DNA from: Bdellovibrio sp.
GTDB taxonomy: Bacteria > Bdellovibrionota > Bdellovibrionia > Bdellovibrionales > Bdellovibrionaceae
Assembly (NCBI GenBank): GCA_046070625.1
Contig: JBJTMR010000061.1
Coordinates: forward strand, 570 to 64,569
Direction of reading: 5' to 3'
Length of the DNA: 64,000 bases
The notes under the pieces were generated by a model, which was not told the DNA's origin, ran no database searches, and was given only the letters and a program-made list of their open reading frames with translations. Positions 20,038 to 64,000 of the stretch are shown here, piece by piece. Numbering within the stretch: position 1 is the first letter of the stretch; each line of letters begins with the position of its first letter. A program made the translations under genes and the position numbers.

Positions 20038-20204
20038 CACGTACCTCCCCCAATATGAGGCTTCAATTTCCTGCATTTACCAAAGAAATTCAATAGTTTA
20101 GTGCCGTACTGTAAAAATAAAACCCTGGTTTAGCAGACATTTTATGCTTGCTTCGCTTCCCCGATTTAATGTACAAGTTCTTAAAAACACTAGGGGATTT
20201 AAAG

Positions 20205-20495: not shown

Positions 20496-20504
20496 TTCGT
20501 TTCC

Positions 20505-20533
20505 AGAAGTCCGGTCCCCCGGACTTCTTTTTT
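20505..20533 (+). terminator. Intrinsic terminator
   Basis: AGAAGTCCGG-TCCC-CCGGACTTCT followed by TTTTT. Confidence 0.8.
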
Positions 20534-20594
20534 ATCAGGGCTCTTCTTAAGCCCGCACCGACCTTGCAAAGTCCTCCACCACCTGGAGGATCTC

Positions 20595-28969: not shown

Positions 28970-29163
28970 CAACCGTGAATTTTTATATGACAGCATATCC
29001 CGAGTCATCGCACTGTTAAAAAAGGCCTGCGGATCTGTACCGCCATGTTCTTTCAAGTTCTGACGTCTATTTTCCCATATCCCGGAAACGTCCGTCCAGC
29101 GCCAATATCCCTGCAATAAAACAGCTCTTTGTATGTTACCTATTTTTGCATTGAGTCGAAGTC

Positions 29164-39428: not shown

Positions 39429-41171
39429 CTATTGAGCAATCTTTCTCACCTTCATATTTCCTTCAACCAGGTCTGATAACCGAATAGAACGACGATCTAA
39501 TTCCGCTTCAATCTGCTGGCAGATCGTACGGCGAACCTGCGCGGTTAATTTGCGGGGCGGGATAACAACCATGTCCGCCAAATCTCTTTCGACAATCATC
39601 GCCTTTTTCTCTGGCAAACTAGAAAGAGCATACGTAAAGAAGACTGCTGGAGTTCTAAAGAATGCCGCATAAAGGGCTTCTACCTCAAGACCACCCAAAA
39701 CTTCACCCACTATATCCAGAGGAGTAATTTTTAAATCATCAAAGGTCAAAATAGATCTGCGTACGCGCTCTAGTTCCTCTGGATTTTCATTGGCAAACAA
39801 GGCCAACATGTCCATTTCCTCTTCCGGTGTCATGCCACGGATAACTCGAGCCAATACCGTCGCGCCTTGAATTTTTGGTTCGGGCTTTACACGCATTTCC
39901 ATCATTCGTTGATTGAATGACTGGATGACCATCTTCACGACGTCATGAGGAAGCTTTTCGATGCGTGAAAGTTCGCTCATAACACGCACCTTTTTTTCAC
40001 CTTCCATTGTAGCAAGGATACCGGCAGTCACTTCAGCTGGTGCATGCAAACAAAAGATTGCAATATTGCGCGCGCTTTCTTTGTCTAAGATTTGCTGGCG
40101 CTCATCTTCACGCATTTTTAAGACAAAGCTAAACGGATTTTGTTCATCTTCAGTCATTTCATGTTCAATGTAAGCCGCAAGTATAGCGCGATAAGTTTCT
40201 CGCACACCGGTTTCAATCTGTGCGGTCGTCGGATCACCCTGACGGTCTTTAACCGTACGACCCATCTTTGCCCACGCCATCGCTGGAATTTCCGTAAATG
40301 CCTGTTTAGCAATATCCCAGCCCAAGAAATCCATCATATAAGTGGCATTTTCGGCGGACTTTTCCAGACAATACTCTGCCATCGCACGAGATGCCATCTG
40401 AGGATACCTAGCTGCAATTTGCACCACATGTTGACGAACGGAGTCCAAATCTAAATCCCAAATTGGCGGTTTCTCCGGTTCAGGAATCACTGGAGAAGCG
40501 GCCGCTGCAACGGTCGGCACAGGTTCTTCTTCTTTTACTTCAGGTTTCGGTTCCTGATGACGATAATCGTGATTTTCTTTAAACTCTTTCTTAGGATCCT
40601 GAGCTCGTGCACGTCTCCACACAGCGAACATCAATCCCGCAAGAGCAAGCAACGACAAGATCACTACTAAAGTCCAAGTCTTCCACGTAAGCTCGGGCAG
40701 CTTTTTGGGAGCTTCTTCCAGCTTTGGGTCTGATGGCAATTCAATCCGACGAACGACCACAGCATCTCCAGCATTTGCGTCTAAATGTAATTTAGACGTC
40801 AGAAGGTCTCTAATGACCTTCTCTACCTCTGGAGAAACATTCCGCGACAGAACGACACTAATATCTGTTTTTGCCTTCATTTCATGAAGCTTATTGGCCG
40901 CCTGAGGGGCCACAGGAACGTCGCCCATCATCGGCATACCTGGAAGATATTGAACTTCTGCTTCATCATGAAATTCTTTAAGCTTTTTCTCGTCACGGTC
41001 CAATTCTACCGAAACAACCAAAGTATAATCCGTTGGACGCAAAATAGTGTTCAGAACAGCCCGGGCCCGAATTTCATAAAGGCTTTCCAAGGATCCCATT
41101 TCTTCAATATATTGTGCCTTGACGGACAGTGTGGAAAAAACAAGTCCTAAAACTATTAAGGTTTTTTTCAT
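39429..41171 (-). CDS. FliF(RBM3)-TM-FliG(M/C) fusion protein
   Basis: Cleavable signal; LESLYEIRARAVLNTIL...VVSVELD and ISVVLS...IRDLLTSKLHLDANAGDAVVV match the FliF ring domain; one TM; IAIFCLHAP, GATVLARVI, ENPEELERVRRSILTFDDL and SSLPEKKAMIVERDL match FliG middle and C domains. Confidence 0.8.
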   Translation of the reverse strand: MKKTLIVLGLVFSTLSVKAQYIEEMGSLESLYEIRARAVLNTILRPTDYTLVVSVELDRDEKKLKEFHDEAEVQYLPGMPMMGDVPVAPQAANKLHEMKAKTDISVVLSRNVSPEVEKVIRDLLTSKLHLDANAGDAVVVRRIELPSDPKLEEAPKKLPELTWKTWTLVVILSLLALAGLMFAVWRRARAQDPKKEFKENHDYRHQEPKPEVKEEEPVPTVAAAASPVIPEPEKPPIWDLDLDSVRQHVVQIAARYPQMASRAMAEYCLEKSAENATYMMDFLGWDIAKQAFTEIPAMAWAKMGRTVKDRQGDPTTAQIETGVRETYRAILAAYIEHEMTEDEQNPFSFVLKMREDERQQILDKESARNIAIFCLHAPAEVTAGILATMEGEKKVRVMSELSRIEKLPHDVVKMVIQSFNQRMMEMRVKPEPKIQGATVLARVIRGMTPEEEMDMLALFANENPEELERVRRSILTFDDLKITPLDIVGEVLGGLEVEALYAAFFRTPAVFFTYALSSLPEKKAMIVERDLADMVVIPPRKLTAQVRRTICQQIEAELDRRSIRLSDLVEGNMKVRKIAQ

Positions 41172-42124
41172 CGCACTACTCCAGAACTTAATATAGCCTG
41201 CGCCATATCTTTAATTTGAGGATATTGAGACTCTTTACTAATTCGAATTACTTCCGCACGAAACTCTTCCACAGAAGACAATTCACGAACGCCGACCAAA
41301 AATGCCTCTTCGTTAGACTCTCCTGATTTTTTAGCCAATCCACCTAGATACTTTTTAAGATCCCCTTTAACCATGCCTCGGTTAATGACCAGTTGCTTAA
41401 ATATCAAAGGCCTAAATTTTTCGTTATAAGAATCATAGGATTTATAGATTTCATTCCAAAAATCAGAAGCGACTCGAAGATCACGCATCTGACTGATTAA
41501 CAAAACGGCTTCATAGGGACCTGTTTTAGAACGAATTTTCTCGTGAACAATTTTGCGTGCCTTTTCGGGAAAAGGGTTCAATCGAACTAATGTCTCCGCG
41601 ACGATGTCCTTTTGGTTTCCGGGCTGCGCTGATTTTTCAAAATTTAACAAGTGATTCGTTGCCTTAGTGGACAATGAATCAAATTTTAATAAAACTTTTG
41701 ATGCATAACTCAAAATCTGAGCTTCTTCACCTAGAACCGGTTTCTCGCGCTTCGCAGTCATGAAGTCCGCAATTTGCTCCTGCAACTGATTCAAATGTTC
41801 TTTTTCTTCTGGTTTCCATTCAGGCTTTGCCACATCCAAAACATAGATGCTGGCTTGAAAGAAATTTCGATTTTCACTTAGAGATTTGCTCAACCCAAAG
41901 AATCCTGACAGGGCGGCAAAGTTTTTTTCTTTCCAGGCTTTCCCAGTTGGTGAAGTCAGATGAGTACTCACTGTTAACCCATGAGCCTTTTTAAGGTCCG
42001 CCAACACATCGGCACCTTCAGATATTTTTGCTGAGTGACTCGTTTTTTTATAAAACAAATAACTACCGCTAACTATCGCCGTTAAAAATACAACTCCTGA
42101 TATTATGACAATCTTCTTATTCAT
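41168..42124 (-). CDS. Membrane-anchored helical protein, unknown function
   Basis: N-terminal TM, helical (HEAT-like) body; ATGA overlap with the FliF-FliG fusion. Confidence 0.75.
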   Translation of the reverse strand: MNKKIVIISGVVFLTAIVSGSYLFYKKTSHSAKISEGADVLADLKKAHGLTVSTHLTSPTGKAWKEKNFAALSGFFGLSKSLSENRNFFQASIYVLDVAKPEWKPEEKEHLNQLQEQIADFMTAKREKPVLGEEAQILSYASKVLLKFDSLSTKATNHLLNFEKSAQPGNQKDIVAETLVRLNPFPEKARKIVHEKIRSKTGPYEAVLLISQMRDLRVASDFWNEIYKSYDSYNEKFRPLIFKQLVINRGMVKGDLKKYLGGLAKKSGESNEEAFLVGVRELSSVEEFRAEVIRISKESQYPQIKDMAQAILSSGVVR

Positions 42125-42127
42125 GTA

Positions 42128-42712
42128 TTACTCGAATCCCACGAAACGGACCCCCGCAAAGAGGGTGATAAAAGTATACTGCACGCCATCTTCCGCCGTC
42201 CCTGCAGCGGTAAGGCTGGAACCCATTGCAACCTGTCCTATCAAAAGCATATTGGACATCATCGGAATCTCAACCCCGCCTCGAAGGTTAAGATCAACAA
42301 GCGAAGCATTAAAGTCTTTGACTGCCAAATTAGATAACCCCAGATTGGCCGCCACAAATGGTGTAGGCCGCCATACCTTTGCTTGAGTTCGGCTGTCTAA
42401 AATGGTGCGAAGACCATTGGTACCGAAAAGGTAATACCGCGCTCCCAGAGCAATCCGTGTAAACGGCATCTGCATTCCTTCGGCCTCCGTCATCTCCATA
42501 AAAGACAGAGTAAAAGCGGTGTTGATAGAAGGACTATTGACACTGTAGTTCACTTCTAGAGTCGTAGGTGACTCTATCGTTTTTGAAGATGAGTCCCTAG
42601 CAAAGGCATACTTTAATGACGTCATACCTAAGCTCACATCCCAATCGGATGTCAAATAAGCCCAAGCAGGCGACGACATTAAAAGCGCTATCACTAAAAC
42701 CCAAGCCTTCAT
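42128..42712 (-). CDS. Small outer-membrane beta-barrel candidate
   Basis: Signal peptide (AWA|YL), amphipathic strands (ALGARYYL, PFVAANLG, LRGGVEIP), aromatic near C-terminus. Confidence 0.7.
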   Translation of the reverse strand: MKAWVLVIALLMSSPAWAYLTSDWDVSLGMTSLKYAFARDSSSKTIESPTTLEVNYSVNSPSINTAFTLSFMEMTEAEGMQMPFTRIALGARYYLFGTNGLRTILDSRTQAKVWRPTPFVAANLGLSNLAVKDFNASLVDLNLRGGVEIPMMSNMLLIGQVAMGSSLTAAGTAEDGVQYTFITLFAGVRFVGFE

Positions 42713-43605
42713 TAACGAACAACCTTTTTATCTGGGTTACGTTTGTCGATCTCAATCGTTGATGCCGGATATCTCATCTCGGCTCCCGATTGTGGAAGCG
42801 GAGCCATTCCCAGACGTTTGTAAACGTCAGATAGATACTGGTAAGCCACTTTGTTGTAAGGATCGATCTTCAAACATCTCTCCCAAGCTACCTTCGCTCC
42901 CTGGAAGTCTTTCTGCAAATATTTTACAGAGCCCTTTAAGAGCCAGGCATTGTTGGAGTACTCATCCATTGTAATTGCCTTATCAATTTGCTCCAGAGCC
43001 TGCGGATAGTTTCCTTTCATGATGGCTTGCTGACCTTGAAAGATAAGCCCCACCACTTTTTCACTACGATCCCGATCTGTTTGCGGCATTCCCCCAGATA
43101 AACGTGGAGAGAACAAAGCATCCTTGTAAAAGGACGAAGTATTCTCTAGTAATGCCACCCGCAATTTTAGCTCAGAAAGTTCCGCCAAAAGATCATCCAT
43201 TTTTTTGTCTTCAGGCTTCTTTTTATCCTCGGGTTTTTGTTGAGGATCTTGCTTTTTCTGATCATCGTTTTTCGCTAACTCTTCGGCCTTTTTTTCTTCA
43301 TCAGACAAAGGGTCGAGGCGCGCCTGTACCGCAATACTTTCCCCTTCATTAACCTTCACCATGACTTCTTTTGTACGATAGTTTTGTTTTTCAAAAATTA
43401 GAAAGAAAACATCGCCCAGCTTAGACTCTTCTTGTACGTTCAGAGGAGCAATACCCAAAAGCTTTTTTTCGTTACTCTGCATATCTTTGATGTAGACTTT
43501 TGATCCAGTCGGATAAGACTTGATTGAGTACTTCCCGGCACAAGCTGAGATAAATACTGGAGAAAGAGCAAGGCACAACATTTTCAGTTGTCGTGTCAGA
43601 AACAT
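42712..43605 (-). CDS. PEGA-domain plus TPR lipoprotein
   Basis: Start moved to ATG 43605 (GGAGG RBS); lipobox FISAC; YSIKSYPTGSKVYI...LGIAPL PEGA-like; coiled coil; TPRs (YPQALEQIDKAI, AKVAWERCLKIDPYN). Confidence 0.8.
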   Translation of the reverse strand: MFLTRQLKMLCLALSPVFISACAGKYSIKSYPTGSKVYIKDMQSNEKKLLGIAPLNVQEESKLGDVFFLIFEKQNYRTKEVMVKVNEGESIAVQARLDPLSDEEKKAEELAKNDDQKKQDPQQKPEDKKKPEDKKMDDLLAELSELKLRVALLENTSSFYKDALFSPRLSGGMPQTDRDRSEKVVGLIFQGQQAIMKGNYPQALEQIDKAITMDEYSNNAWLLKGSVKYLQKDFQGAKVAWERCLKIDPYNKVAYQYLSDVYKRLGMAPLPQSGAEMRYPASTIEIDKRNPDKKVVR

Positions 43606-43691
43606 TTCCATTATCCTCCATGATATATGGGCGTCGCATTCTGCTTCCCCATATTCATTTTCCCAAGTATGAGAGGAAAAAAGCATTGCTT

Positions 43692-44306
43692 ATGAGACAT
43701 ATCCTATCCTTAGTCCTGTTATTAATGTTCTGTGATGTTTCGCGTGCCAACCTTCAGGCACCAGTCTTAAGAACTAAGCTTTCTATGTACAACACGACGG
43801 TGACCGCAGGCGAGCTGGTCCAGGAGCAAGCTCTTGGCTCTCTGATGACGTTTCAGCCCTCACTTCTTTGGGACATTCCCTCGATGAGCGCACGCGTAGG
43901 GGTGCACTATATTATCGATATTAATAGCAAATATGGGGCTACTCCTATCTCAGGCATAGGTTTAAGTGGATATTACTATCTCAAAGGTTTGTCTTCGGTT
44001 TATGAAGTTACTCCGGATGAGGTCTTAACTCAAAAGTCGCGTCCAGGCTTGTTTACCTTCGCAAGCTTCACTCCGGTTAATTTTAATCTAAATAAAATGG
44101 ATCAAGCCGATCCGAATCAGTCATTTTCTTTTAGTGCTCTGGTATATGAATTTATTCTAGGTCTAGGATATGAATATCCTTTAAAACCGAATGCTCTTCT
44201 GGCTTTTGAACTTTCCCAGAGAGAAGGCTCCTCATCTTCCGGAGACAAAAATGTTCGGTACTCCGGCATGGGCTTCTCTCTGGTATTTACGACTTCTTAC
44301 TATTGA
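43692..44306 (+). CDS. Small outer-membrane beta-barrel candidate
   Basis: Start moved to MRHILSL; signal peptide (SRA|NL); amphipathic strands; ends TTSYY. Confidence 0.7.
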   Translation: MRHILSLVLLLMFCDVSRANLQAPVLRTKLSMYNTTVTAGELVQEQALGSLMTFQPSLLWDIPSMSARVGVHYIIDINSKYGATPISGIGLSGYYYLKGLSSVYEVTPDEVLTQKSRPGLFTFASFTPVNFNLNKMDQADPNQSFSFSALVYEFILGLGYEYPLKPNALLAFELSQREGSSSSGDKNVRYSGMGFSLVFTTSYY

Positions 44307-45247
44307 GCTTTCTCTTCGTACTGCTTGGCTTTCGTTTCAAGAGCTTCAATTTTCTTTTCTAAGTTCTGTAATTGTTGCTCTTTACGTTTTTGCTCAGCCT
44401 GTTCACGGTACTTTCTTTGAGCTTCCTCAAAACGAGCTTTCGCGAGCTTCATCTTATCTTGCAGTTCCGCCTCTTTTTGTTGGCGTTCCACTTCTTCTTT
44501 ATTGAGTTGTTTTTTAAACTGTTGCTGTTGCAGACGGTATGCCGCCTCCGGATCCATCATCTTTACTGCAATCATCACACGACGATTTACAGCTTTGTTG
44601 GTCGGTAGATCCTCGCCCTTGGCGTCTTTCTCTGGAGCAATTGGCTGAGAAGATCCATATCCCACTGCTGACAGCATTTTCGATTCAAGACCACTTTCCT
44701 CAAGATACCGAACCACAGAGCTTGCGCGCAATGATGACAACTCCCAATTTGATTTGATCAAGCTATTTTGCATACGATCGCCGTCCGTGTGTCCTTCAAC
44801 TGAAATCTTTTCCACACCGGGAACAGATCTTAAAGCTGCAACGACCTTGCGCATGCCGGATTTAGCTTCTTCTCGCAATTCAGTCGCGCCAGAGGCAAAT
44901 AGAACTTCTCCATCAAATTTTAAAAGAATCGTGTCGTCAGATCCCTTGGAAACTTCGACGCCTTTTAAATCACCAGATCCCAACAGAGTTGTTTTTAGCT
45001 TCTGTTCAGCCAAAACAATTGTGCTAGTCTCTTTAATTGTACCACCGAAATATTGAGCGACTTCTTTCCGAACCAAATCGAATTTTGTGTTATCAAATCT
45101 TGATAGAGAATACATCAAAACGAAAAACCCAAAAAGTAAGGTCATCATGTCCGCATAACTGACGAGCCAATTGGATTCGTCATGAGAATGAGATCCGTGA
45201 TCGTCATGCTCCTCGTGATGCTTGCTGCGTTTACTTGGTGCCCCCAT
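44300..45247 (-). CDS. motB: MotB-family stator subunit with C-terminal coiled-coil extension
   Basis: WLVSYADMMTLL with the proton-accepting Asp; OmpA domain VEGHTD, SNWELSSLRA, VGYG, NRRV. Confidence 0.93.
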   Translation of the reverse strand: MGAPSKRSKHHEEHDDHGSHSHDESNWLVSYADMMTLLFGFFVLMYSLSRFDNTKFDLVRKEVAQYFGGTIKETSTIVLAEQKLKTTLLGSGDLKGVEVSKGSDDTILLKFDGEVLFASGATELREEAKSGMRKVVAALRSVPGVEKISVEGHTDGDRMQNSLIKSNWELSSLRASSVVRYLEESGLESKMLSAVGYGSSQPIAPEKDAKGEDLPTNKAVNRRVMIAVKMMDPEAAYRLQQQQFKKQLNKEEVERQQKEAELQDKMKLAKARFEEAQRKYREQAEQKRKEQQLQNLEKKIEALETKAKQYEEKAQ

Positions 45248-46048
45248 TTAGGCCGCCTTTTTTGTCGCTGGCATTTCGTTGTTACGTTGACCTGGTGGCA
45301 AGAAAGATTTTAGATATTCACGAATAAAAATGGGATGTTTTTTCTCATGAACTAGAAGAACACCTTCCTTAATAATCTCTCGCAAGGTCATATCTGCCTG
45401 AGATACGCTGATCAACTTTTCGCTGATTGGAATCAAAATAAGATTGGCCAACAACAAACCGTAGAATGTCGCAACGAGAGCCGTCGCCATGGCCGGACCG
45501 ATACGATCTTGGGCCCCTGGTTCACCCAATGTCTGAAGCAACGAAATCATCCCCAAAGTTGCCCCCAAAAGACCGAATGCCGGGGGAAAACGGGATAGCG
45601 TCTGCCACACTTTTATTTCCTCGCCATCACGCTTTCTTTTACCACGAACGGCGTTAGACAGTACCTCATCTAGTTCTTCATAATTAAAACCATAATCAAC
45701 TAAGAGCTGAATACCATCTTTTAAAAATGGATGATCCGACGGTTTCAAAGCACTTTGAACTGCTTTAGGATCTTTCCTATAGGCCTCAGAAAGTTCGACA
45801 ATCTTTTCAATTGTATCCAAATAGTTAATCGCTCTTTCACGACCTAGATATTTTCGAGCAATGATTTTCAGCGCTGTTCCTAGACTTTTGAAATTGAAGC
45901 TCATCAAGGCAACGGTAAGCGTTCCGCCCACCACCAGCATCAATCCATGTACGTCCGCAAACACCTTTGGATTTTTTGCGCTGTCGAGAATTGCAAAGCC
46001 GGCAATCCCTGCCGCCGCTAATAGTCCTAATAAACCTGCAAAATTCAT
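45248..46048 (-). CDS. motA: MotA-family stator subunit
   Basis: LVVGGT, HPFLKDGIQLLVD, PPAFGLLGATLGMI, IGPAMATALVATFYG, IPISEKL. Confidence 0.93.
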   Translation of the reverse strand: MNFAGLLGLLAAAGIAGFAILDSAKNPKVFADVHGLMLVVGGTLTVALMSFNFKSLGTALKIIARKYLGRERAINYLDTIEKIVELSEAYRKDPKAVQSALKPSDHPFLKDGIQLLVDYGFNYEELDEVLSNAVRGKRKRDGEEIKVWQTLSRFPPAFGLLGATLGMISLLQTLGEPGAQDRIGPAMATALVATFYGLLLANLILIPISEKLISVSQADMTLREIIKEGVLLVHEKKHPIFIREYLKSFLPPGQRNNEMPATKKAA

Positions 46049-46201
46049 AGTTCCTCCGAAAATTCACAGTTGAAATAATCCACTGGTTTCTTCGAAACAT
46101 TTTCATGAGTTCTAAACTGTACTTAAGCTTAGATTTTCGAACTTTAGCTGGTTGCAATTTTGTGGAAAAGGTTCTCACGTTTATACTAAAGAGAACTAAG
46201 G

Positions 46202-46642
46202 GTGAAAATTATGATCACGGCTATTACATTTGTTTTTATACTTATATGTGTCGTGGAAGGCGTACTTATCACACGCGAATTCCTCGGAACACGAAGGAAC
46301 GTTACCGCTAAATCTCTTTTGGCTGAACTCCAAAATGAAAATCGCGCCCTATCCGAAAAGCTAGGTGCTACAGAGAAAAAGCTAGACGAAGCTCATAAGG
46401 AACTACAAGGCATTCATCTTTTATGGAATAAAGCCCTTCTATCTGAGCAAGGCCTCCGACAGGACCTTGAGATAGCGAAAACTCAGCTAACATATCTCGC
46501 CCAAACTGTCTTAAAAATTAAATCAGAAACAAAGACTTACTGGTCGGAAGAAGTAACGACAGTTGCTGCTCCTCCAAAGAAATCAGAAAATCTTCGTGCC
46601 TTTAAAAACTCTAGCGAGCTTATTGCTCGGGACTTTCTCTAG
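46202..46642 (+). CDS. Membrane-anchored coiled-coil protein
   Basis: N-terminal TM followed by about 70 aa of heptads; divergent from motA. Confidence 0.7.
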   Translation: MKIMITAITFVFILICVVEGVLITREFLGTRRNVTAKSLLAELQNENRALSEKLGATEKKLDEAHKELQGIHLLWNKALLSEQGLRQDLEIAKTQLTYLAQTVLKIKSETKTYWSEEVTTVAAPPKKSENLRAFKNSSELIARDFL

Positions 46643-47379: not shown

Positions 47380-47400
47380 AGGACTCTCCTCTCTGGTCGC

Positions 47401-49563: not shown

Positions 49564-49575
49564 TTCACACCATCA

Positions 49576-51251: not shown

Positions 51252-51389
51252 AAGCGCCCTCAGTCAATGTTTGAGACAAAGCAGGAGCCCTTAAGCTCCC
51301 GGTAGCTAATGTTAAATATCTGTCAAAATGCGAGGGATTTATATCTGAATTACTTCAGCATGGAAATTTCTAGACTGAAAGACAGCTTC

Positions 51390-55224: not shown

Positions 55225-58200
55225 CTATTTCGCTTTGTATACCTTTCCTTTGGATCTACTCACCAGCAATATTTGTCCCGAAGGATATGAAGCTATACTG
55301 GTGATTGGATTCTGAACTGCACTTACGTAAACTGTATTCGTCGTTAGATCCACAGTAAACACTTGATTTGCACCCTCCATAGTTCCGATCAATAATCGAT
55401 CCTGAGAGCGAATTACTAGACGTTTCCCTGCGCCAGGAACGTCAAAAGGAGATCCATTCAATTGGTTGACTCCAATAAACTCCATGCTTCCCACAGTCGG
55501 CGTCGTTGAACCACTGTCCGGAAAAGTCACAACCCCGCCCGTTCCACTGAGCAGAGCATAAACACGGTTATTCGTGGAATCGTAAAGGATATCGGAAGGC
55601 TTAGAGTCCTCATGACCTACGACACCATCGAATACATTTAGCGACGTTACCAACGACGGTATTCCGCCAGAAAGCGCCGCAGTGACATCAAATACAAATA
55701 TTTTATGCAAGACTGTCGGTGAAGTCTGTTGAGCAGTCACATACAGCCTGTTAATGGAACGATTCAACGTCATCCCGGAAATCTTCATAGTTCCGAAGTT
55801 ATATACAGTCTTGGGATTCGATGGAGCAAGATAGTCATAATACAAGACATTGCCTGCATCTGCTGCATAGAACACATAGGTCGAATCCATTGAAGTGGTA
55901 ATACGACTGTCTGAATAATAAGGACTTGTATAAAGTTGCAACGGACAATCCCCCGCACACTTATTATTACTTGCCAATGCAAGAGACGTAAGATCTCCAT
56001 TCATTATATGCAGAGCTTCCGTGGTCAAACCGAATGGCCCACTTCTAGCGGATGTTGAAGTCATCAGCATGTCGTACCCCGTACCTACGGGGTTAATGGC
56101 AATTCGTCTAGTCGATGTGCCCGTCAGCCATGGCAGGTCTTCCGTGAAATTCCACGGTGGATTAACCAAGGTTCCATTGGGCTTTCCAATGTTTCCATTA
56201 ACCATCAGCAAGTCCCAAAGGAAATGCTTTTGAAACGAGCCAGACATATAGTTTCCGGCAATAATTAAATGATCTAGATTGTCATTTCCAACAAGCTGTC
56301 CGTAAGCGATTTCCCCCATCCAGTTGACATTCGTCGGAGTGATCGATGGTGAGCTTTCAATTCGGCTTGTCGTCAAGTCAAAGACAGAATCTCCTAACAA
56401 AAAGGTATTCAAAACTTTCACGTCCCAGCTTCTAGAGACAACATAGTTTCCGTCCGTTACTTCCACACGGATCGTGAATTCACCAGCTTTCTTAGGACCA
56501 TTACCGTCGGGATCTAAAGAGCCATCCATATCACTCGGCTTAAATGTGAAGCTTGAAGACTCGTCAGAACTAATTTTTCCATTCACATACCAACGATAAA
56601 ACAGCACATCATCTGGATTCGGATCCGAAGCATTTACCGACAAGACCACAGAACTCTTCTCTGCCACTAAAATATTGTTTCCAGATGGAACAGATGAATC
56701 TATGACTGGTGTTTTTTCGAATGGCGATAGGGCGCTTTGAACTTTCAAATAGAAATGCGCACTGTCGACGTCCCCTGTTACAGTATCTTTGACTTGGACA
56801 CGAATAAGGCTCCCCGGACTTCCCGCTGGAGTAATATCCAACGAGTAATTTGGCACCCAGGTAATAACTCCGGTGCTCGAATCGATACAAACACCATTGG
56901 CAACTCCGCACTCTCGCGGAGACGATAACAAGGAGTATTCTAAAGAGTGTTCCTGCGAATTATTCACAATGACATCATAGCGGAAGGGTTGCTCGTTCAT
57001 ACTGGCCGCAGTCTGAATCATATGATGCGTTGGCACATTCATAATGCTCACTCGCGGACTGACCAAATAAACCGGCGCCACGACAGTTAACAGTAATGGC
57101 GTCCCACTGATCGCCGATGGCAAAGCGACCCCGTCTCTATCCACGTCACCATTATCATTGACATCAATCTCTGCAGAAAACACCCCAATTTGGCCACGCT
57201 GTGGACACCATTCCATTTGATATTTTTGGCGAAGAACTCCGTTGATCACCTCTGGGGCGCCTGCCGGGCTGAACTTTGGAATAGCGAGATCCGCATTTAA
57301 GACTCCGGAGGAATAACATTGAGTCAAATTTTTATTACGATCGTAAGCAGGGTCATAAGTTGTCAACTCAACAGGAAACGTCGCCGTCGTCGCATGACAA
57401 ATAAATGGATCAGCAGACCCAGTATCTAATGTTGGATGTTGCAAAGCCACGCCATTTCCATCACGACAAGCAGTCAAAGTCGTGGCGAAAGTTCCCCCCA
57501 TTGGAACAAAGGCATCTTTGTCATATAAGAAGAATTCTTTTTTAACATAGGTGTCCGCAAAAACTTTTACCTTGTTATCGGTATCCATTGTGGCGATCGT
57601 CGGAATCTGATTCTTGTTAATCAAGCGAACTTTATAATAACCATAAATAGACGTAGAAACATCTGGCGATGATTTCGCATCAAATACTTTTATTTTTACA
57701 ATCAAACCTGCGGCCCCGGAGAACTGTTTAGAGTCGGCGTCTGTTGGGTTCCATGTCAAACGAGCTGTTGTTTTCGTGCCGCTCGTCACAGTCAGAGGGT
57801 CCACTCTATCAATGCTCACCGTTAATCCCGCAGGACGATCACGCCAGGTACTGGTTTTTAAATCATAGACTTGAGGCTGAATTTCGAAATTATCATTCTT
57901 CAATTCCTCCCCTTTGTTGGAGTCTGTCACATAGAAATTGTAGAAGCTTGAAGTTCCTTCCGCATAATCTCCTAGAACAACTGGCGTCGCCGTGCTTGCT
58001 CCAGTTCCCCCGGTTAATGCGGTAAATGAACTGTTCGTAAGAACTGGTGGGTGATTCACTTCATGAACCACCAAAGTTAAATTGGTCGTATAAACTAGGG
58101 CAGAATAATAGGTGTTGTTCACGAAATAAGCGGAACTATCACAATACCTACTGACAGCCCCGGTTTGACAACCGGAATTTAGATTTTCATATGTTGTGAG

Positions 58201-61200
58201 CTTGTACGAAAAAGTTCCCGAAAGATCCAAAGCATTCGGCTGATAACGAATATAACATTTGGAACTTTTAAAATAAGAACGATAGGCAGCCAATGGCAAA
58301 AACGCAGGAGCCCCATAACTACAACTATTGCAGGCAGAAGCATATGCCCCTGGCTCGCGACATAGTTTCAATCCCCCAGCTGGAGGAGTTCCCTGAGCCG
58401 CTAAAACAAATGAATACGAATCACGACGATCTTTCGGGTACCAGTATTCATGCTGCGTATAAAGAGGGTCAGGAATTGTTGATGCCACATCGGAAACTTC
58501 AATCAGCCCGTCGGTCAACTCCTGGCCTTCATAAGCATGAACCATCGTTTCGCTAATGATTTTTGAAGCGTTATTTAAACGCGCCAAGTTTAACGTTATG
58601 GACCGAGACGTCTCTCCAGGGACTAACGGTGCAGTATTCGGTATACCAAAATAATTTATCCGGCGTACCCAGACACCCGTCACCGAAGCTGTTCCCGCCG
58701 CAAAGTTCACATCATACAATGTTTCATACTGAGTACGTATACTTGTCGTGATCCTGGTTCCCTTTGGAAGAGTAAACGCAGGGGTCGCCGTTGGACGAGT
58801 GAAATTCACCATACCTTCAAGGTCGAAGGATGTCGGATTTGTTACTTTCAAGCCCGTGACACCGGCAGGTAAAGGATCCATAAAGGCATTGATCGTATTC
58901 ACCGCAGGTTTATCGCCGTCCAACGCTCGAATATTGTACTTACGTGACAGTATTGAAAAAGTCGGTTCCAGAGCTAAGGAAGTCACATTATAATTCGTCA
59001 AACCAATGACCGATTCGGACACAAAACTGAAGCCCGCTGGCTCCGCTGGTGCCGGCGCTGCCCAAGTAATCGTCAACGGTGTCGCTGCTGGAGTCACCGC
59101 AAATCTGCGCCACACAGGAATAGTCACCGAAGACGTATTGGCTGGAATGGTCACATCTGCAGGAACCTCAAATAAAACATCTGGTACAAACGGCGTACCA
59201 GAAAAAGAAGCCGTTTTAATTGTACAACCCGCTGGAATCGTTCCTATTGCAGTGGCCGGGGTACGCGTGAAGGTGACAGAGCCTTGGTCATCAATCGGCA
59301 GACTGTTCGTCACTGTATATGTTCCACCTGTTGTCGCACAGGTTCCCAGGACCGTCACTTTACCCGCGGGAACTACGGTATCCAACGCTACTACAGGGAT
59401 ATAAATCAAATAATCCTGGGGCAAAATCGTCACATCCATAGCCGTGGCAAATCGTTGATAAAAGCCTGCGGCCGCCGAAGTTAAGATAGTTCCCTTTTTT
59501 ATTGTCGTCGAAGCTGTGGGCCGAGGGAATGTCGTGGCTGTGCCGCGAGTGAATCGAACAGAGCCAGCTCCATTCCAAAAAATGCTGTTATAGGAACTCC
59601 GTATACACAAGGAGCCAGAATTCTTCCGAAAGGTGGGCTCATCTTGAGCAATATTCTGTTTCAGAACGAAGGGCTGCCCCGTCGCGCAGTCTCCAACCAA
59701 TTTAAGTACATCAAAGCTATTGTTGGCAGCGAAACCAAAGGCTTCGAGCCATAGCCCCCCTCCGTCTTTATCTGACGTTGAAACAGTTGAAGAGGCTTGG
59801 AATATATTGGGGTTCAGGCCCGCAACAATATTAGGCGTCGTTAAGCATGGTTTGGTATTTCGGTCTTGTGCGGAAAAATTCAAAGTTAGGGGCGTTGAAA
59901 AACCACCATGATTATCTTTAAGAGTGATAATAAAGGTTCCCGTCTTAGCCGTATGAGTAGGTTTCCAATCATAGGTTACACGCAAACGATCCGCAAGCTG
60001 CTCCTTGGAAACCAAGGTCATATTAGCATTCAGCGTTCCCCCAGTTGTATATGAAATCTCATCTGGTGGAGTCGGAGCAGGAGTGTCTAAGTTATCAGGA
60101 TCCTGGAAGTCCAAATAGAATCGATAAGGTGGAACACCGTCCGGAACTTCTAAAGCACAATAGTCATATTCATAGGGGTCATTATAAATGACCTTCACTC
60201 CACTAGTCGTCCCGCCCACAAGAATCGGAGCACGATTTGTATCAGCAACCAACACATTGAGAGTCAAAAGCCCAATCCCAAAGGACTCATCCATTAACTC
60301 CAAAGAAATACTGCCTGCTTTTTTAAAAGCATCGCCATTATTCGGCGTCCAACGAACTTCAACTTCATTGGCATCATTAATTGTCGCTGGCGCAAGCTGT
60401 CCATTAATACTCAGTTGACTCGAGTCGGTTATCTCCGCAATTTTTGCAGAAACTTTTCCACCATCAGGATCAGAATAGTGAATCTTACATACCCATTCCT
60501 TCGACTCTACAGCATTCAAGTCGCAGTTATGGGAAAATACCGGGATACGATTGACGTTATCCACGAAGACATCCCAACTAACTCGAGTAACCTTTCCGCC
60601 ATCAGACAGAATCACACTCATCTGATAGGGTGCAACCCGTCCTTGATCATAATTAGGAGTCCATTTAACAGTGCCATTTTCACTGTCGACCAACTGTCCC
60701 TCAAACATCCACGCATAAAATACTTGGTCACCATCCGGGTCTAACGCCAGAGCCTTCATTAGCAGATTCGAATTTTCATTCACTCGTTGATCCACCAGAG
60801 GCGTGGTTGCTCTATCGTCCAATGCTGGCGGGCGATTCTGAATTCCAAAGGGGTACGGAGCAGATAAAATATCTCCGTCAGAATTGAAGTTGAAATTAAC
60901 ATCAAACTTTTTAAGCAATGTTAAAAAGGCAACGTCATTTGATAGACCGTTACGTACGAAGCGATAAAGAAGATCTGGATTAAAATCTTCTTCAATGCCG
61001 AACATCGCCATTCGCTCTTTACGAAAAGCTGTGACCGCATTCGTAATTTCGCTCACTTCACTTTGGGTAAAAGTCGCAAGTGGTCGATTCCCGTAATTAG
61101 CTAATAGATTATATACCAGCGTAGAATCCAGAGTAACCGGAATAACAACATCTGAAAACACGATCGCATACCATGGAGTCGATCGATATTCCATAATCAG

Positions 61201-61491
61201 TTTGGCAACAGTCGCGCCAGAGGGATTAAGTCCTTTAGGCAAAATCCGACGCATTAAATTCGGCTTTTCATCGGTGGTTAAATCCAATAAATTTTTTGCT
61301 CTAATTTCTTCTTGCAGGAACTGCGCTAGATAAAGGGAATATCTACTGGTACTAACTTTATTAGCTTGGGTTAGTTCCAATTGAATCAAACCGCCAGCAG
61401 GAATGACGATTTCACTAGATGTGCCCTTATCTTCCAGGCAACCGGAAAATAAGAACACTGATATAATTAATGCCAATATCCTAATCAGCAT
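55225..61491 (-). CDS. Giant surface lipoprotein: Ig/cadherin-like repeats, baseplate-J-like repeats, C-terminal beta-propeller
   Basis: Lipobox LFSGC (Cys18); repeated NxxP domain starts (NRPP, NRIP, NRAP, NHPP, NQIP); IDSSTGVITWVP putative-Ig motif; three G.V.FTR...I..GT repeats; propeller blades at C-terminus. Confidence 0.85.
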   Translation of the reverse strand: MLIRILALIISVFLFSGCLEDKGTSSEIVIPAGGLIQLELTQANKVSTSRYSLYLAQFLQEEIRAKNLLDLTTDEKPNLMRRILPKGLNPSGATVAKLIMEYRSTPWYAIVFSDVVIPVTLDSTLVYNLLANYGNRPLATFTQSEVSEITNAVTAFRKERMAMFGIEEDFNPDLLYRFVRNGLSNDVAFLTLLKKFDVNFNFNSDGDILSAPYPFGIQNRPPALDDRATTPLVDQRVNENSNLLMKALALDPDGDQVFYAWMFEGQLVDSENGTVKWTPNYDQGRVAPYQMSVILSDGGKVTRVSWDVFVDNVNRIPVFSHNCDLNAVESKEWVCKIHYSDPDGGKVSAKIAEITDSSQLSINGQLAPATINDANEVEVRWTPNNGDAFKKAGSISLELMDESFGIGLLTLNVLVADTNRAPILVGGTTSGVKVIYNDPYEYDYCALEVPDGVPPYRFYLDFQDPDNLDTPAPTPPDEISYTTGGTLNANMTLVSKEQLADRLRVTYDWKPTHTAKTGTFIITLKDNHGGFSTPLTLNFSAQDRNTKPCLTTPNIVAGLNPNIFQASSTVSTSDKDGGGLWLEAFGFAANNSFDVLKLVGDCATGQPFVLKQNIAQDEPTFRKNSGSLCIRSSYNSIFWNGAGSVRFTRGTATTFPRPTASTTIKKGTILTSAAAGFYQRFATAMDVTILPQDYLIYIPVVALDTVVPAGKVTVLGTCATTGGTYTVTNSLPIDDQGSVTFTRTPATAIGTIPAGCTIKTASFSGTPFVPDVLFEVPADVTIPANTSSVTIPVWRRFAVTPAATPLTITWAAPAPAEPAGFSFVSESVIGLTNYNVTSLALEPTFSILSRKYNIRALDGDKPAVNTINAFMDPLPAGVTGLKVTNPTSFDLEGMVNFTRPTATPAFTLPKGTRITTSIRTQYETLYDVNFAAGTASVTGVWVRRINYFGIPNTAPLVPGETSRSITLNLARLNNASKIISETMVHAYEGQELTDGLIEVSDVASTIPDPLYTQHEYWYPKDRRDSYSFVLAAQGTPPAGGLKLCREPGAYASACNSCSYGAPAFLPLAAYRSYFKSSKCYIRYQPNALDLSGTFSYKLTTYENLNSGCQTGAVSRYCDSSAYFVNNTYYSALVYTTNLTLVVHEVNHPPVLTNSSFTALTGGTGASTATPVVLGDYAEGTSSFYNFYVTDSNKGEELKNDNFEIQPQVYDLKTSTWRDRPAGLTVSIDRVDPLTVTSGTKTTARLTWNPTDADSKQFSGAAGLIVKIKVFDAKSSPDVSTSIYGYYKVRLINKNQIPTIATMDTDNKVKVFADTYVKKEFFLYDKDAFVPMGGTFATTLTACRDGNGVALQHPTLDTGSADPFICHATTATFPVELTTYDPAYDRNKNLTQCYSSGVLNADLAIPKFSPAGAPEVINGVLRQKYQMEWCPQRGQIGVFSAEIDVNDNGDVDRDGVALPSAISGTPLLLTVVAPVYLVSPRVSIMNVPTHHMIQTAASMNEQPFRYDVIVNNSQEHSLEYSLLSSPRECGVANGVCIDSSTGVITWVPNYSLDITPAGSPGSLIRVQVKDTVTGDVDSAHFYLKVQSALSPFEKTPVIDSSVPSGNNILVAEKSSVVLSVNASDPNPDDVLFYRWYVNGKISSDESSSFTFKPSDMDGSLDPDGNGPKKAGEFTIRVEVTDGNYVVSRSWDVKVLNTFLLGDSVFDLTTSRIESSPSITPTNVNWMGEIAYGQLVGNDNLDHLIIAGNYMSGSFQKHFLWDLLMVNGNIGKPNGTLVNPPWNFTEDLPWLTGTSTRRIAINPVGTGYDMLMTSTSARSGPFGLTTEALHIMNGDLTSLALASNNKCAGDCPLQLYTSPYYSDSRITTSMDSTYVFYAADAGNVLYYDYLAPSNPKTVYNFGTMKISGMTLNRSINRLYVTAQQTSPTVLHKIFVFDVTAALSGGIPSLVTSLNVFDGVVGHEDSKPSDILYDSTNNRVYALLSGTGGVVTFPDSGSTTPTVGSMEFIGVNQLNGSPFDVPGAGKRLVIRSQDRLLIGTMEGANQVFTVDLTTNTVYVSAVQNPITSIASYPSGQILLVSRSKGKVYKAK

Positions 61492-61516
61492 AAAAATCCC
61501 CCAACTTACGTGCCGG

Positions 61517-64000
61517 CTAGTATAACAAGAAGTATGTGCCGATTTTTACCCCAACAAGAGGACTGTAGCCTCCATGGAACTCGGTTGGAACCATGATATC
61601 CATTGTTCCATCCCCATTCACATCCCCCGTCGATGTGTTTGCAAAGAAGTACCTTGGCGCGGTGGTATCATCAGCACGCTTAATAATGTAAGGCTTCACA
61701 TGACCTGAAGAATCCGCTACGACCACGGAATCCGGGTAATCTGCTGCATGCAGCCCCGTTACAGATCCAAAGAATGCAACACCACGACCAAAACTAGAAT
61801 TCCCCAGAATTGGATCATCCCAGTATGGGGCTCCTAAAATGACGTCATCAAAGCCATCCCCATTTAGGTCACCTTTTTTTGTTCGTCCCGTCATAACAGT
61901 ATAACCGTTATAATCTGAAGCTGCCGTATCCCAAACATAGAAAGGCATGGGGGCAGGTTTCGATATGCCCGTCGTTTTGATACACTCTGGCATTGGCGAT
62001 AAGTTAATACTTGGATCAGCAAACTGAAACTGTTTGTTCATATTTCCGTAAAGAGAACTAATCCACATATCGGTCGCATTATCGTTGCCACACAATGGGC
62101 CATAGTACATATAAGCCAATCCTGCGGTCGGCAACGAGGCCAATGGCGTTTCGGTAGGAGCCGTGACGATAAGGTCCTCATAGCCGTCGTTGTTCACATC
62201 GCCTGCAGAAGCTACGCGCCAGCCAAAATTTCTAGAATTGGTGTCCCTATTAATTGGCGGCATCAAAGACCGCACCTGACCTGTGCCATCCAAATTTAAA
62301 GAAACCGAATTGCGACGCTGAAAAGCATCATTAGAAAGGCACTCTCCCGGATTGTAACTGGCATCGTAGTAATCTCTTTGATTTCCGGCGATCAATCCAT
62401 TGTTACTGCCTTTAAATAAGAAAATACGACCGTAGGCATTTCTTTTACGCACTGGATTCATAGGATCACTAAGATCATCCACGTCATAATAACAAGGAGT
62501 ATCTTCCCAGCCTGGGGCGGCCACAACAAGATCATCGATACCGTCGTGATCGTAATCGACAATAGCTATTGAGCTGCCAAAATTATGATAGTTGCGGTCA
62601 TATCCATGATCTACATTCTCGATAAAGGGATCATAAAGAAACTGCATTTTACAGTTTTTATTCGTGATGCCTGCAGACCCTGGACACGCTTTGTTCGTCG
62701 CGCCGGCGGCCTCAGAATTATATGCATCAACCATGTATGCTGAAGTTCCGGCTGGCAATACCAACGTTGTCGGCACATCCGGCTCGTTATCGCTCACCGC
62801 ATATCCCTTCGCCTTAGGTGTTTGCACACCAGACGTCGACCCATAATAAATCCACACCCGTCCGGCTCCCCAAGCTGGAGTACCGGATGAGCATCCACCG
62901 TCGATGGCCCCCGGAGAGCACTGCCAGCCCCCGTTCGCAACCACAGGCCCTGCCACTGTTCCACCATCCGGTGAAGCGCCAGGATTAAACCCTGTGGTTT
63001 TATTCATGATAAAGAAGGCCGTCGCATCAGGGTTCGAAATCACAAGGTCCGAAAGACCATCGCCATTGAAATCTCCATGCACAATAATTTCCCTACGAGT
63101 ATTAAAATTATTCGTTGCCGAAGTTCCGGTGAGATTGGCCATCGACGACCAACGCTTAGAGATTATCTGTGGATCACCATACGCCGGTATCCACTGTGGA
63201 TTACTTACGGCCTGTAGTCCCCCACGAGATCCATAATAAACAACAATTTGACCTGACGTACTTAGCCAATCTATAAATGCGACATCTGCAAACCCATCCC
63301 CATTAATGTCGCCAGCATCAAAGGCACGCGACGCCCATTCTTGCGACAGGTTTGTGGGTTTTGAAATCAACTGCGGCAAAACGATATCGTCCACCGTCAC
63401 ACCCTGTGCGGGATTTGCCGACGGATAACAGTAACTGGTATTGCCTTGGCCAGTTTTAAAGATACGATTCATATTTTCTAAACAAAACGAAGTGCTAATC
63501 AAGCCAATCTTCGAACCATAAAACACAACAGCATCAGTGATATTTGAAGCACTCGTTGGGGAAGGCCAAGAAATTTTTGCGACAGCGTCGGTATAGCCAT
63601 CGCGATTAATATCACCGACCAAACGAATACTTTCATATCCCGATTTCTGGGAACCTGCCAGAGATTCATAAATTGAAAAAGACGGTACTGAGTTCACCGC
63701 AGATAATGCCTGTCCATGACTGTTAAAACCATAAACAGCACCACCACCATTCTTTGTGGTTTTATCTAAAAATGCTCCGACCGCAACGTCATTCAAAGGT
63801 TTTACCCCGGCGAAATCTCCGTCAAAATTTCCAGCAGCAACGGATCGTCCGAAGTAATCGCTTGGTTTTCCATATGTATTATAGAACTTCAAAAAGTTTG
63901 TAGTAAGACCTGCATTTGCCAAGCTTGTAAATGCGTACACTGCTCCGGCATTGGTTCCTTTAGTTGTGTCCCCTACAGCTCCAATAATAACGTCTTTTAA
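61517..64000 (-). CDS. FG-GAP/integrin-alpha-like beta-propeller protein; truncated by the right window edge
   Basis: Frame is open from 64000 (LKDVIIGAVGDTTKGTNAGAVYAF); seven DxNxDG-type Ca-binding loops and FG-GAP motifs (YFGRSVA, NFGSSIA, NFGWRVA, VVAAPG, ILGAP). Confidence 0.9.
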   Translation of the reverse strand, partial: LKDVIIGAVGDTTKGTNAGAVYAFTSLANAGLTTNFLKFYNTYGKPSDYFGRSVAAGNFDGDFAGVKPLNDVAVGAFLDKTTKNGGGAVYGFNSHGQALSAVNSVPSFSIYESLAGSQKSGYESIRLVGDINRDGYTDAVAKISWPSPTSASNITDAVVFYGSKIGLISTSFCLENMNRIFKTGQGNTSYCYPSANPAQGVTVDDIVLPQLISKPTNLSQEWASRAFDAGDINGDGFADVAFIDWLSTSGQIVVYYGSRGGLQAVSNPQWIPAYGDPQIISKRWSSMANLTGTSATNNFNTRREIIVHGDFNGDGLSDLVISNPDATAFFIMNKTTGFNPGASPDGGTVAGPVVANGGWQCSPGAIDGGCSSGTPAWGAGRVWIYYGSTSGVQTPKAKGYAVSDNEPDVPTTLVLPAGTSAYMVDAYNSEAAGATNKACPGSAGITNKNCKMQFLYDPFIENVDHGYDRNYHNFGSSIAIVDYDHDGIDDLVVAAPGWEDTPCYYDVDDLSDPMNPVRKRNAYGRIFLFKGSNNGLIAGNQRDYYDASYNPGECLSNDAFQRRNSVSLNLDGTGQVRSLMPPINRDTNSRNFGWRVASAGDVNNDGYEDLIVTAPTETPLASLPTAGLAYMYYGPLCGNDNATDMWISSLYGNMNKQFQFADPSINLSPMPECIKTTGISKPAPMPFYVWDTAASDYNGYTVMTGRTKKGDLNGDGFDDVILGAPYWDDPILGNSSFGRGVAFFGSVTGLHAADYPDSVVVADSSGHVKPYIIKRADDTTAPRYFFANTSTGDVNGDGTMDIMVPTEFHGGYSPLVGVKIGTYFLLY

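Follow-up and report, generated by a model that had tools for sequence, protein, structure and literature searches.

Organisation of the motor block

We analysed 64,000 nucleotides of Bdellovibrio sp. (contig JBJTMR010000061.1, assembly GCA_046070625.1), hereafter the window, in which the block from 39429 to 64000 combines the genes of a MotA/MotB stator pair with a gene for a 580-aa protein that joins FliF-like and FliG-like parts in one polypeptide. A first-pass annotation of the sequence had described this block as a candidate non-flagellar rotary motor coupled to a surface-adhesin platform. Our open reading frame (ORF) check recovered every gene it had named, in place, and the motA-motB pair, the PEGA-TPR, von Willebrand A (VWA) and FG-GAP proteins and the 2088-aa lipoprotein are all supported by Pfam. 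The stretch 46639-64000 was likewise found to run on the minus strand throughout, with tight junctions of -28 to +25 nt and a single exception, a gap of 138 nt. As had been noted, the window is devoid of genes for rod, hook, filament, FliM/N and export gate, and the same holds for all related loci described below; a Pfam search of another 31 window ORFs with a length of 150 aa or more detected no flagellar domain. The motor end of the block consists of the following elements:

39429-41171, minus strand: rotor candidate of 580 aa (Pfam FliG_M and FliG_C above cut-off; AlphaFold2 models; Foldseek)
41168-42124, minus strand: p318, N-terminal transmembrane helix and helical domain; overlaps the fusion gene by 4 nt
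42128-42712, minus strand: brl194, small outer-membrane beta-barrel candidate; signal peptide, weak OMP_b-brl match (E 0.007)
42712-43611, minus strand: PEGA-TPR lipoprotein; TPR_2 7e-8, PEGA 6e-3 (weak); ORF extends to 43686
43692-44306, plus strand: brl237, small barrel candidate; divergent from PEGA-TPR and convergent on motB; C-terminus ...TTSYY; ORF from 43593
44300-45247, minus strand: MotB, 315 aa; MotB_plug 2e-17, OmpA 3e-18; channel Asp in SYADMMTLL
45248-46048, minus strand: MotA, 266 aa, PomA-class stator A subunit; MotA_ExbB PF01618 3e-21
46115-46136, minus strand: motif AAATCTAAGCYTWRGTACAGTT, about 22 nt, shared by the window with seven Bdellovibrio loci; lies 67-88 nt ahead of the motA start codon
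46202-46642, plus strand: p146, small membrane-anchored coiled-coil protein; divergent from motA

The rotor candidate is a FliF(RBM3)-FliG fusion

The predicted product of the first of these genes starts with a signal peptide (residues 1-19) and a periplasmic domain similar to RBM3 of FliF (28-142), followed by a transmembrane helix (163-187), a disordered linker (186-238) and a FliG-like part (242-570) that, going by structural alignment, would comprise N besides M and C. In Pfam, FliG_M scored 31.3 bits (cut-off 25) and FliG_C 27.1 bits (cut-off 23.3); FliG_N reached 22.6 against a cut-off of 25 and was placed on the M region. FliG matches at 4e-7 were obtained from the PDB sequences. The AlphaFold model of the whole protein (predicted local distance difference test, pLDDT, 73.5) is all-helical from 242 to 570, and in a Foldseek comparison with the PDB it placed FliG on ranks 1-13 with 310-320 columns across N, M and C, the next entries being FliF RBM3/S-ring structures. 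With residues 20-192 modelled alone, the top 17 PDB matches were all FliF RBM3/S-ring (E 3.8e-4 to 1e-2, probability 1.0), followed by unrelated OsmC/Ohr folds. The top structural matches of this domain were the Vibrio S-ring structures 8z4g and 8z4d, which come from FliF-FliG fusions. Its modelled topology, helix-strand, insertion, strand-helix-strand, would be that of the split RBM3 of FliF.

The connection to FliF could be made only with structure prediction and with distant relatives, because Pfam gave nothing on the periplasmic domain. An exhaustive profile search yielded 84 clusters below 1e-30, and more than 100 of the best 150 representatives show a signal peptide, 150-280 periplasmic residues often with the motif [LIFM]PG[LMIV]P, a transmembrane helix and then FliG. 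Several distant members match PF08345 (YscJ_FliF_C, the RBM3 family) above cut-off, in the case of P0195 with 33.4 bits against 23.8 and over the full profile. RBM1, RBM2, the first transmembrane helix and the beta-collar of FliF are absent, leaving about 120 periplasmic residues between the cleavable signal peptide and one transmembrane helix. At the position of the beta-collar lies a helix-loop-helix with an almost invariant LPGMPMMG loop, and the RBM3-like domain together with this LPG[ML]P loop constitutes the best conserved part of the protein. The FliF/FliG-like fusion of the earlier annotation is thus real, though it is no 'minimal FliF': judged by sequence and models, the 580-aa protein is a natural FliF(RBM3)-TM-FliG fusion that holds only RBM3 and the second membrane helix of FliF, with the beta-collar replaced. 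It does not qualify as a FliG, being membrane-anchored, devoid of the EHPQR motif and far below the score of the FliG equivalog TIGR00207 (22.4, cut-off 226.7), nor does it qualify as a FliF, of which it has only RBM3.

We aligned 132 fusions with 10 canonical FliG proteins and surveyed the known interfaces. Of the FliM-binding EHPQR motif only the E is kept (96% of the fusions; the window protein reads ESARN), compared with 70% for H and 90% each for P and Q in canonical FliG. The hinge F is kept in 87% and the hinge D in 82% of the fusions. On the torque helix (E. coli numbering) the R281 equivalent is K or R in 92%, and the D289 equivalent is D or E in 74%. Judging from the alignment, this pattern of kept and lost residues fits a protein that meets the stator yet would no longer bind the switch complex.

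The stator belongs to the PomAB class

MotA residues 1-258 align with residues 1-250 of Vibrio PomA in the PDB (E 3e-31). Its clade carries a specific signature, Y-R-x-[ND]-P-K...H-P-F (117 sequences), and the equivalent of PomA R88 (E. coli MotA R90) is kept in 114 of the 117 members. In MotB the OmpA domain is followed by a Lys/Glu/Gln-rich coiled coil of about 75 aa (44300-44530, residues ~240-315). This C-terminal extension is longer in two of the distant loci (L025 and L027, proteins of 376-422 aa) and absent from the gammaproteobacterial operon described below (224 aa). The best NCBIfam matches of MotB were the MotD and MotB families, below their equivalog cut-offs; no equivalog cut-off of NCBIfam was reached by the pair (PomA 149, cut-off 341; MotD 145, cut-off 283), and the TolQ match was only 9e-4. 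MotA and MotB are stators of the PomAB class, MotB having the plug, the channel Asp and the OmpA domain. The 22-nt motif upstream of motA is a putative promoter or operator; by eye no sigma-28 or sigma-54 consensus was seen upstream of motA, and a generic promoter and terminator scan remained at background level.

Three motAB pairs are present in B. bacteriovorus (PMC11323537). The locus syntenic to the window lies at 2.90-2.92 Mb of the 3.77-Mb chromosome, and by this position the window pair fits motAB2 (Bd3021/Bd3020); the locus tags of the neighbouring B. bacteriovorus genes were likewise assigned by position only. The pair motAB1 (Bd0144/5), which has the predation genes Bd0148-Bd0150 of Duncan 2019 downstream, was considered and rejected, as the location of the syntenic locus fits motAB2.

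Gene linkage across genomes

A scan of one genome per species identified 22 loci, all in Bdellovibrionota (loci are numbered with the prefix L). Every locus of the genus Bdellovibrio has the same order: giant lipoprotein, brl396, VWA, p410, p146 (opposite strand), MotA, MotB, brl237 (opposite), PEGA-TPR, brl194, p318, fusion and SpoIIE (opposite). Homologues of the 580-aa fusion are 64-77% identical throughout the genus; the window sequence itself was found only in DNA runs of freshwater, groundwater and wastewater metagenomes. In family-level relatives, in which the fusion is 28-36% identical, MotA, MotB, brl237, PEGA-TPR, brl194, p318 and fusion are still together, sometimes rearranged (L010, L013, L014, L019, L020, L022, L023). 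Five MotA relatives were sampled at 56-60% identity, and all five adjoin a fusion, MotB, a brl237 homologue, PEGA-TPR (~50%) and a brl194 homologue. Cluster look-ups returned almost no taxonomy for this distant MotA clade. In four of the five the fusion gene is located directly upstream of motA.

A more FliF-like branch of the fusion family belongs to Oleispira and Thalassolituus (Gammaproteobacteria), where fusion and motA are separated by 0-8 nt in an operon that encodes a 350-aa lipoprotein (ending in ...GVRF), a TPR lipoprotein, the fusion, MotA and MotB:

L031:8220-13407: five-gene operon of Thalassolituus hydrocarboniclasticus (Oceanospirillales, CP054475), away from flagellar genes
L032:8241-13433: five-gene operon of an Oleispira metagenome-assembled genome (Oceanospirillales), away from flagellar genes

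The 350-aa lipoprotein of this operon has no detectable homology to brl396 or the small barrels. The TPR part of PEGA-TPR, in turn, shares homology with the TPR lipoprotein encoded there (E 1e-8 to 1e-12).

In total the core set recurs in about 30 independent loci from two phyla, a grouping far beyond chance, and in none of these loci do flagellar genes adjoin the module. Genetically, the fusion is locked to this MotAB clade, the TPR lipoprotein and the barrel candidates even between deeply diverged relatives and, with a smaller gene set, from one phylum to another. This gene linkage is the strongest evidence of the analysis. It also delimits the co-occurrence of motor and barrel/adhesin genes across Bdellovibrionota, which holds for the seven-gene core; VWA472, brl396 and Big2088 accompany it within Bdellovibrionaceae-level relatives only.

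Directly before the fusion in the four distant loci lies a short RBM3-like paralogue (L025:6927-8060, L027:6753-7964, L029:7121-8104 and L030:3478-4554). Behind its signal peptide this protein has an RBM3-like domain whose loop reads HLPGLPD, then a transmembrane helix and a short FliG_M-like tail. Its presence hints at a two-component or concentric ring.

Envelope partners of the core

The product of p318 has no match in Pfam or NCBIfam, and iterative search placed its homologues beside the module in 24 loci of Bdellovibrionota, the distant L025, L027, L028 and L029 among them. The barrel candidate brl194 is kept in all Bdellovibrionota loci with enough flank, and brl237 in every Bdellovibrionota locus at the same position and in the same orientation; the two are paralogues of each other. 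PEGA-TPR keeps about 50% identity in loci whose fusion has dropped to about 29%. Its true start is likely 43611, which would give the lipobox ISAC, and that of brl237 is likely 43692. A homologue of p146 (36-52% identical) occupies the same place in all Bdellovibrio-genus loci.

Four outer-membrane barrels had been listed for the block. All four candidates have signal peptides and two end in an aromatic residue; they remain candidates, brl194 having no more than a weak OMP_b-brl match, and one of them, brl314, belongs to the insertion described in the next section. Searches of PDB sequences with brl194, brl396 and VWA472 returned nothing usable.

On the far side of the fusion gene a phosphatase gene is conserved:

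37629-39395, plus strand: SpoIIE/PP2C phosphatase (SpoIIE 3e-36), convergent on the fusion gene; possible regulator

Its synteny extends to all Bdellovibrio loci, at 51-62% identity, and L010 and L023 have weaker homologues. A sigma-70-family gene (36097-37203) precedes it in the window and is otherwise shared only with L009.

Surface proteins and a window-specific insertion

The remainder of the block, upstream of motA, contains the genes that had been taken together as an adhesin platform:

46639-51251, minus strand: insertion of five genes, for p246, brl314 (barrel candidate, 314 aa), a 'fibre' of 405 aa rich in Ala, Gly, Ser and Thr, a lipoprotein of 315 aa and a coiled-coil protein of 251 aa
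51390-52622, minus strand: p410, membrane-anchored; homologues only in Bdellovibrio-genus loci
52619-54037, minus strand: VWA472, secreted von Willebrand A protein (VWA 8.5e-8); intact DSSGS metal-ion-dependent adhesion site (MIDAS), beta-rich C-terminal region
54034-55224, minus strand: brl396, barrel candidate with N-terminal periplasmic domain; always adjoins VWA472
55225-61491, minus strand: Big2088, giant lipoprotein with lipobox FSGC and Ig/cadherin-like repeats (Big_9 5e-5)
61517-64000, minus strand: FG-GAP repeat protein (FG-GAP 4e-37, 61517-63940); frame open to base 64000, gene cut by the window end

We found that this part of the block is not one unit. The genes of 46639-51251 had no tblastn match in 24 related loci and no counterpart in the gene lists of L025 and L027-L032, and in B. 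bacteriovorus the p410 homologue is directly followed by p146 and motA. A terminator-like hairpin (51301-51282) lies at the boundary. The stretch is a window-specific insertion outside the conserved module, which removes the fibre, the Ig lipoprotein and one barrel from the proposed platform. By description the 405-aa fibre resembles Bd0149 ('PE-PGRS-like, antifreeze-like'), a likeness of descriptions only.

The other surface genes are more widely linked. Fifteen loci have a VWA472 homologue close to the module, among them the distant L010, L013, L023, L024, L028 and L030, and brl396 homologues were found in 12, among them L013, L024 and L028. Big2088 is syntenic in Bdellovibrio and L013; unrelated giants of 2700-3250 aa take its position in L025, L027 and L029. 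In L011, L015 and L016 the fusion gene is followed by full-length FG-GAP homologues at a distance of 8 kb downstream. No Pfam or NCBIfam match was obtained for p410 and no family or PDB match for brl396, NCBIfam gave nothing for the adhesin-side genes, and the gammaproteobacterial operon contains none of VWA472, brl396, Big2088 or the FG-GAP proteins. The link of the module to integrin-like surface proteins is therefore real but lineage-specific, and weaker than first proposed.

In L016 a 1566-aa fn3/FG-GAP gene (11699-16399) starts 4 nt after the fusion gene. In L028 a 1562-aa fn3 and FG-GAP gene (16818-20816) follows the fusion with one small opposite-strand gene between them.

Transcript contigs from B. 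bacteriovorus

RNA data were available as assembled contigs of B. bacteriovorus runs covering its locus L001, which give presence and contig ends and are unstranded and non-quantitative; for the window organism the runs are metagenomic DNA. In one run a single contig extends from 17 nt before motA into the fusion gene at a depth of about 600, and no contig covers the upstream VWA-side genes. Another run has separate contigs for motAB and for PEGA-TPR through fusion. The arrangement of brl237, convergent on motB and divergent from PEGA-TPR, suggests the same two units, motAB and PEGA-TPR-brl194-p318-fusion. The contigs suggest that these two are present together and that the adhesin-side unit is regulated apart. 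Because the contigs are unstranded and non-quantitative, we use them as supportive evidence only. The literature searched has no text match for Bd3015-Bd3024, and none of these genes occurs in the supplement of the attack-phase/growth-phase RNA-seq paper.

Comparison with known systems

In its parts the module works most like the rotor-stator interface of the flagellum (FliF/FliG with MotAB or PomAB). The stators are homologous and both have the plug, the channel Asp and the OmpA domain. The rotor parts share FliG M and C, probably also N, as well as the hinge, and most fusions have charges of the R281 and D289 type; the same membrane helix carries, towards the periplasm, a ring-building domain like RBM3. 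In contrast to the flagellum, the rotor part of the module is one polypeptide instead of two, has lost EHPQR and lacks RBM1, RBM2, the first transmembrane helix and the beta-collar. Genes for FliM/N, export gate, rod, hook, filament and L/P ring are not found near it; its partners are instead the TPR lipoprotein, p318 and the barrel candidates. Engineered FliF-FliG fusions of Salmonella and Vibrio alginolyticus demonstrate that a covalent link is compatible with ring assembly (PMC11481574, PMC10941966). Those are laboratory constructs with full-length FliF, whereas the window gene is natural, truncated, widely conserved and provided with its own stator.

The Agl-Glt machinery of Myxococcus resembles the module in that an ion-driven inner-membrane motor is tied genetically to TPR proteins, outer-membrane barrels and a VWA-type adhesin, and in the proposed logic of moving adhesins. 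It differs in the motor, as AglRQS are TolQR-class motors without a FliG-like rotor (PMC12505986) and the window stator is PomAB-class. Pfam and NCBIfam returned no gliding-family match for any gene of the block, a result of family profiles that involved no reference-sequence comparison with GltA/B/H or CglB. Bdellovibrio moreover has separate Agl and Glt homologues (PMC13104615). The GldLM/GldKN motor of the Bacteroidota type IX secretion system is alike in concept, a 5:2 ion motor that turns or pushes an envelope ring and so moves or secretes surface adhesins. It shows no homology, its GldM spans the periplasm itself, and it has no FliG-like cytoplasmic rotor; no gene of the block matched GldL, GldM, GldK or GldN in Pfam or NCBIfam. 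Tol-Pal and ExbBD-TonB also couple a stator-type motor to TPR, lipoprotein and outer-membrane partners without a filament, but represent another branch of the stator superfamily, without a plug-plus-OmpA B subunit, torque interface or rotor ring. Neither a natural FliF-FliG fusion nor a non-flagellar module of MotAB and FliG turned up in the literature searched, in agreement with the earlier statement that the parts list matches no described machine.

Proposed mechanism and alternatives

We propose that the locus encodes a rotor-stator ring derived from the flagellum and independent of it, without switch and without type III secretion system, which powers an envelope or surface process; we give this reading a probability of roughly 0.55. 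The fusion would oligomerise through RBM3 into an inner-membrane ring that shows the FliG torque helices to the cytoplasm, a step for which the engineered FliF-FliG fusions provide a precedent (PMC11481574, PMC10941966). Stators of MotA5B2 type, anchored to peptidoglycan by MotB, would conduct ions and push on this ring. The ring would have neither switch nor axial filament, because the FliM-binding motif is lost and FliM/N, export gate, rod and hook are missing. Its periplasmic face with the LPG[ML]P loop may, together with p318, hand the work on to PEGA-TPR and to the small barrel candidates of the outer membrane. In Bdellovibrionaceae the core is linked to integrin-like surface or secreted proteins (VWA with its barrel partner, giant Ig lipoproteins, FG-GAP), whose display, movement or release it perhaps powers. 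Domain architecture, homologies, cross-lineage gene linkage and the motA-to-fusion contigs of the RNA runs are observations; ring formation, rotation, periplasmic coupling, the output and the link to adhesin movement, gliding or prey contact are inferred. In a more specific version, which we put forward tentatively and hold to be possible rather than probable, the locus would represent a distinct envelope-spanning rotary machine of at least two phyla, in which a homo-oligomeric mini MS/C-ring of the fusion, without type III export core, rod or switch, is spun by its dedicated MotAB and torque is transmitted via the TPR lipoprotein to outer-membrane proteins, in Bdellovibrio moving or deploying the VWA, FG-GAP and Ig proteins; it would then be the missing link between motor and adhesin in gliding or prey attachment. 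Gliding, prey attachment and adhesin movement, as suggested in the first-pass annotation, are purely inferred functions of the module.

Several findings weigh against the proposed ring. The window fusion has no sequence-level match to FliF, its periplasmic domain alone giving no Pfam match up to E 10, and the structural match is only moderate (TM-score 0.43-0.53, model pLDDT ~74). The equivalents of D288 and R297 on the torque helix are not conserved in the fusions, nor is that of PomA E96 (E. coli MotA E98), which is A, S, D or E in the clade. L016 has no MotAB within 10 kb of its fusion, with L011 and L015 probably alike, and large fn3/FG-GAP genes follow there. On the output side, the adhesin-like genes are linked to the module in some lineages only, and the RNA run that contained the motor genes gave no contig over the VWA side. 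Genes numbered Bd301x/Bd302x are absent from the supplementary files of a predation transposon-sequencing study, files that are possibly incomplete, so that either the module may be dispensable for predation on E. coli or the files may lack it. Finally, a number of points concern the flagellum itself. Mutants of fliL show a strong change in motA2/motB2 expression (PMC11323537). All host organisms of the module that could be named are flagellated. Morehouse et al. reportedly observed in 2011 that B. bacteriovorus swims more slowly when any one of its three motAB pairs, motAB2 among them, is deleted. In view of this reported swimming effect and the response to FliL loss, the motAB2 stator may serve the flagellum as well, or nothing but the flagellum.

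These last points would all be explained if motAB2 were a spare flagellar stator, the membrane-anchored FliG-like protein a regulator of it (decoy, parking site or brake) and the envelope genes accessories of the sheathed flagellum motor. This main rival is also favoured by the PomAB class of the stator, which is that of flagella, and by TPR proteins and lipoproteins being known as stator scaffolds of polar motors such as those of Vibrio and Campylobacter (PflA/PflB, MotX/Y and FlgP). We nevertheless regard it as unlikely. A periplasmic domain for ring building would be superfluous in a decoy, but the RBM3-like domain and the LPG[ML]P loop are the parts best conserved; in none of about 30 loci does the module adjoin flagellar genes, in two phyla the fusion gene and motAB make up a single compact operon, and direct fusion-FG-GAP gene pairs exist in L016 and L028. 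Epibiotic Pseudobdellovibrionaceae, furthermore, lack motAB1 and motAB2, with the exception of strain SBM16, which keeps Bd3021, and motAB3 is present in every strain (PMC11870529). The motor might instead not rotate at all: the fusion ring could be a static docking scaffold that activates MotAB, and motion would pass via the MotB coiled coil and the TPR lipoprotein to the outer-membrane barrels, in the style of Tol-Pal and ExbBD-TonB, for outer-membrane upkeep, uptake or secretion. Such a trans-envelope transducer would account for a universal core with TPR lipoprotein and barrel-like outer-membrane candidates in each phylum, for the lineage-specific C-terminal extension of MotB (75-200 aa) and for the missing axial structure that a rotor could turn. 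It remains improbable in our view, since the retained part of FliG is exactly the torque interface and hinge, the driven element in the flagellum, and since Tol- and Exb-type systems use another stator class and not the plug-plus-OmpA type (PMC12505986).

A sensory role, in which stator engagement on the ring reports surface contact or load on the envelope through the SpoIIE-type phosphatase with a sigma factor nearby, is suggested by the SpoIIE/PP2C gene convergent on the fusion and syntenic in all Bdellovibrio loci, and by the sigma-70-family gene that accompanies it in the window and L009. With SpoIIE absent from the distant and the gammaproteobacterial modules and the sigma gene not syntenic in B. 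bacteriovorus, we consider this very improbable. A mere chance neighbourhood of unrelated genes does describe 46639-51251, which is indeed an unrelated insertion; for the core genes, which recur in shuffled order in about 30 loci of two phyla, it is refuted, and as an explanation of the locus its probability is close to nil.

If the flagellum-derived ring is real, another envelope task has taken over the torque interface of the flagellum, or a simpler ancestral arrangement has been preserved. Flagellar-class stators and FliG are, as far as we know, thought to work only in flagella. A recent survey placed flagellar stators in one group distinct from their non-flagellar homologues (PMC12505986). 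The module would also be the smallest natural rotor-stator system for structural and single-molecule work. For Bdellovibrio it would offer a concrete candidate for the motor and adhesins of surface motility, which a 2026 review lists as unidentified and a major open challenge (PMC13104615). With the core operon also present in Oleispira and Thalassolituus, two genera of the Oceanospirillales, the question is wider than predation.

Other features of the window

Outside the block, a secretin gene (433 aa) stands beside a gene for a T2SSE-family ATPase (371 aa) at 29164-31577, with a DUF4423/helix-turn-helix regulator ahead (28175-29116); the pair is possibly a small pilus or secretion module. 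At 2342-4769 we found two tandem polysaccharide deacetylase paralogues (370 and 430 aa); adjacent genes encode an O-antigen-ligase-like protein (Wzy_C) and a protein with an SLBB domain. At 24754-26832, where the G+C content of the window is highest (0.517 compared with ~0.45), lies a 692-aa ORF without Pfam match, and several long ORFs overlap there on both strands.

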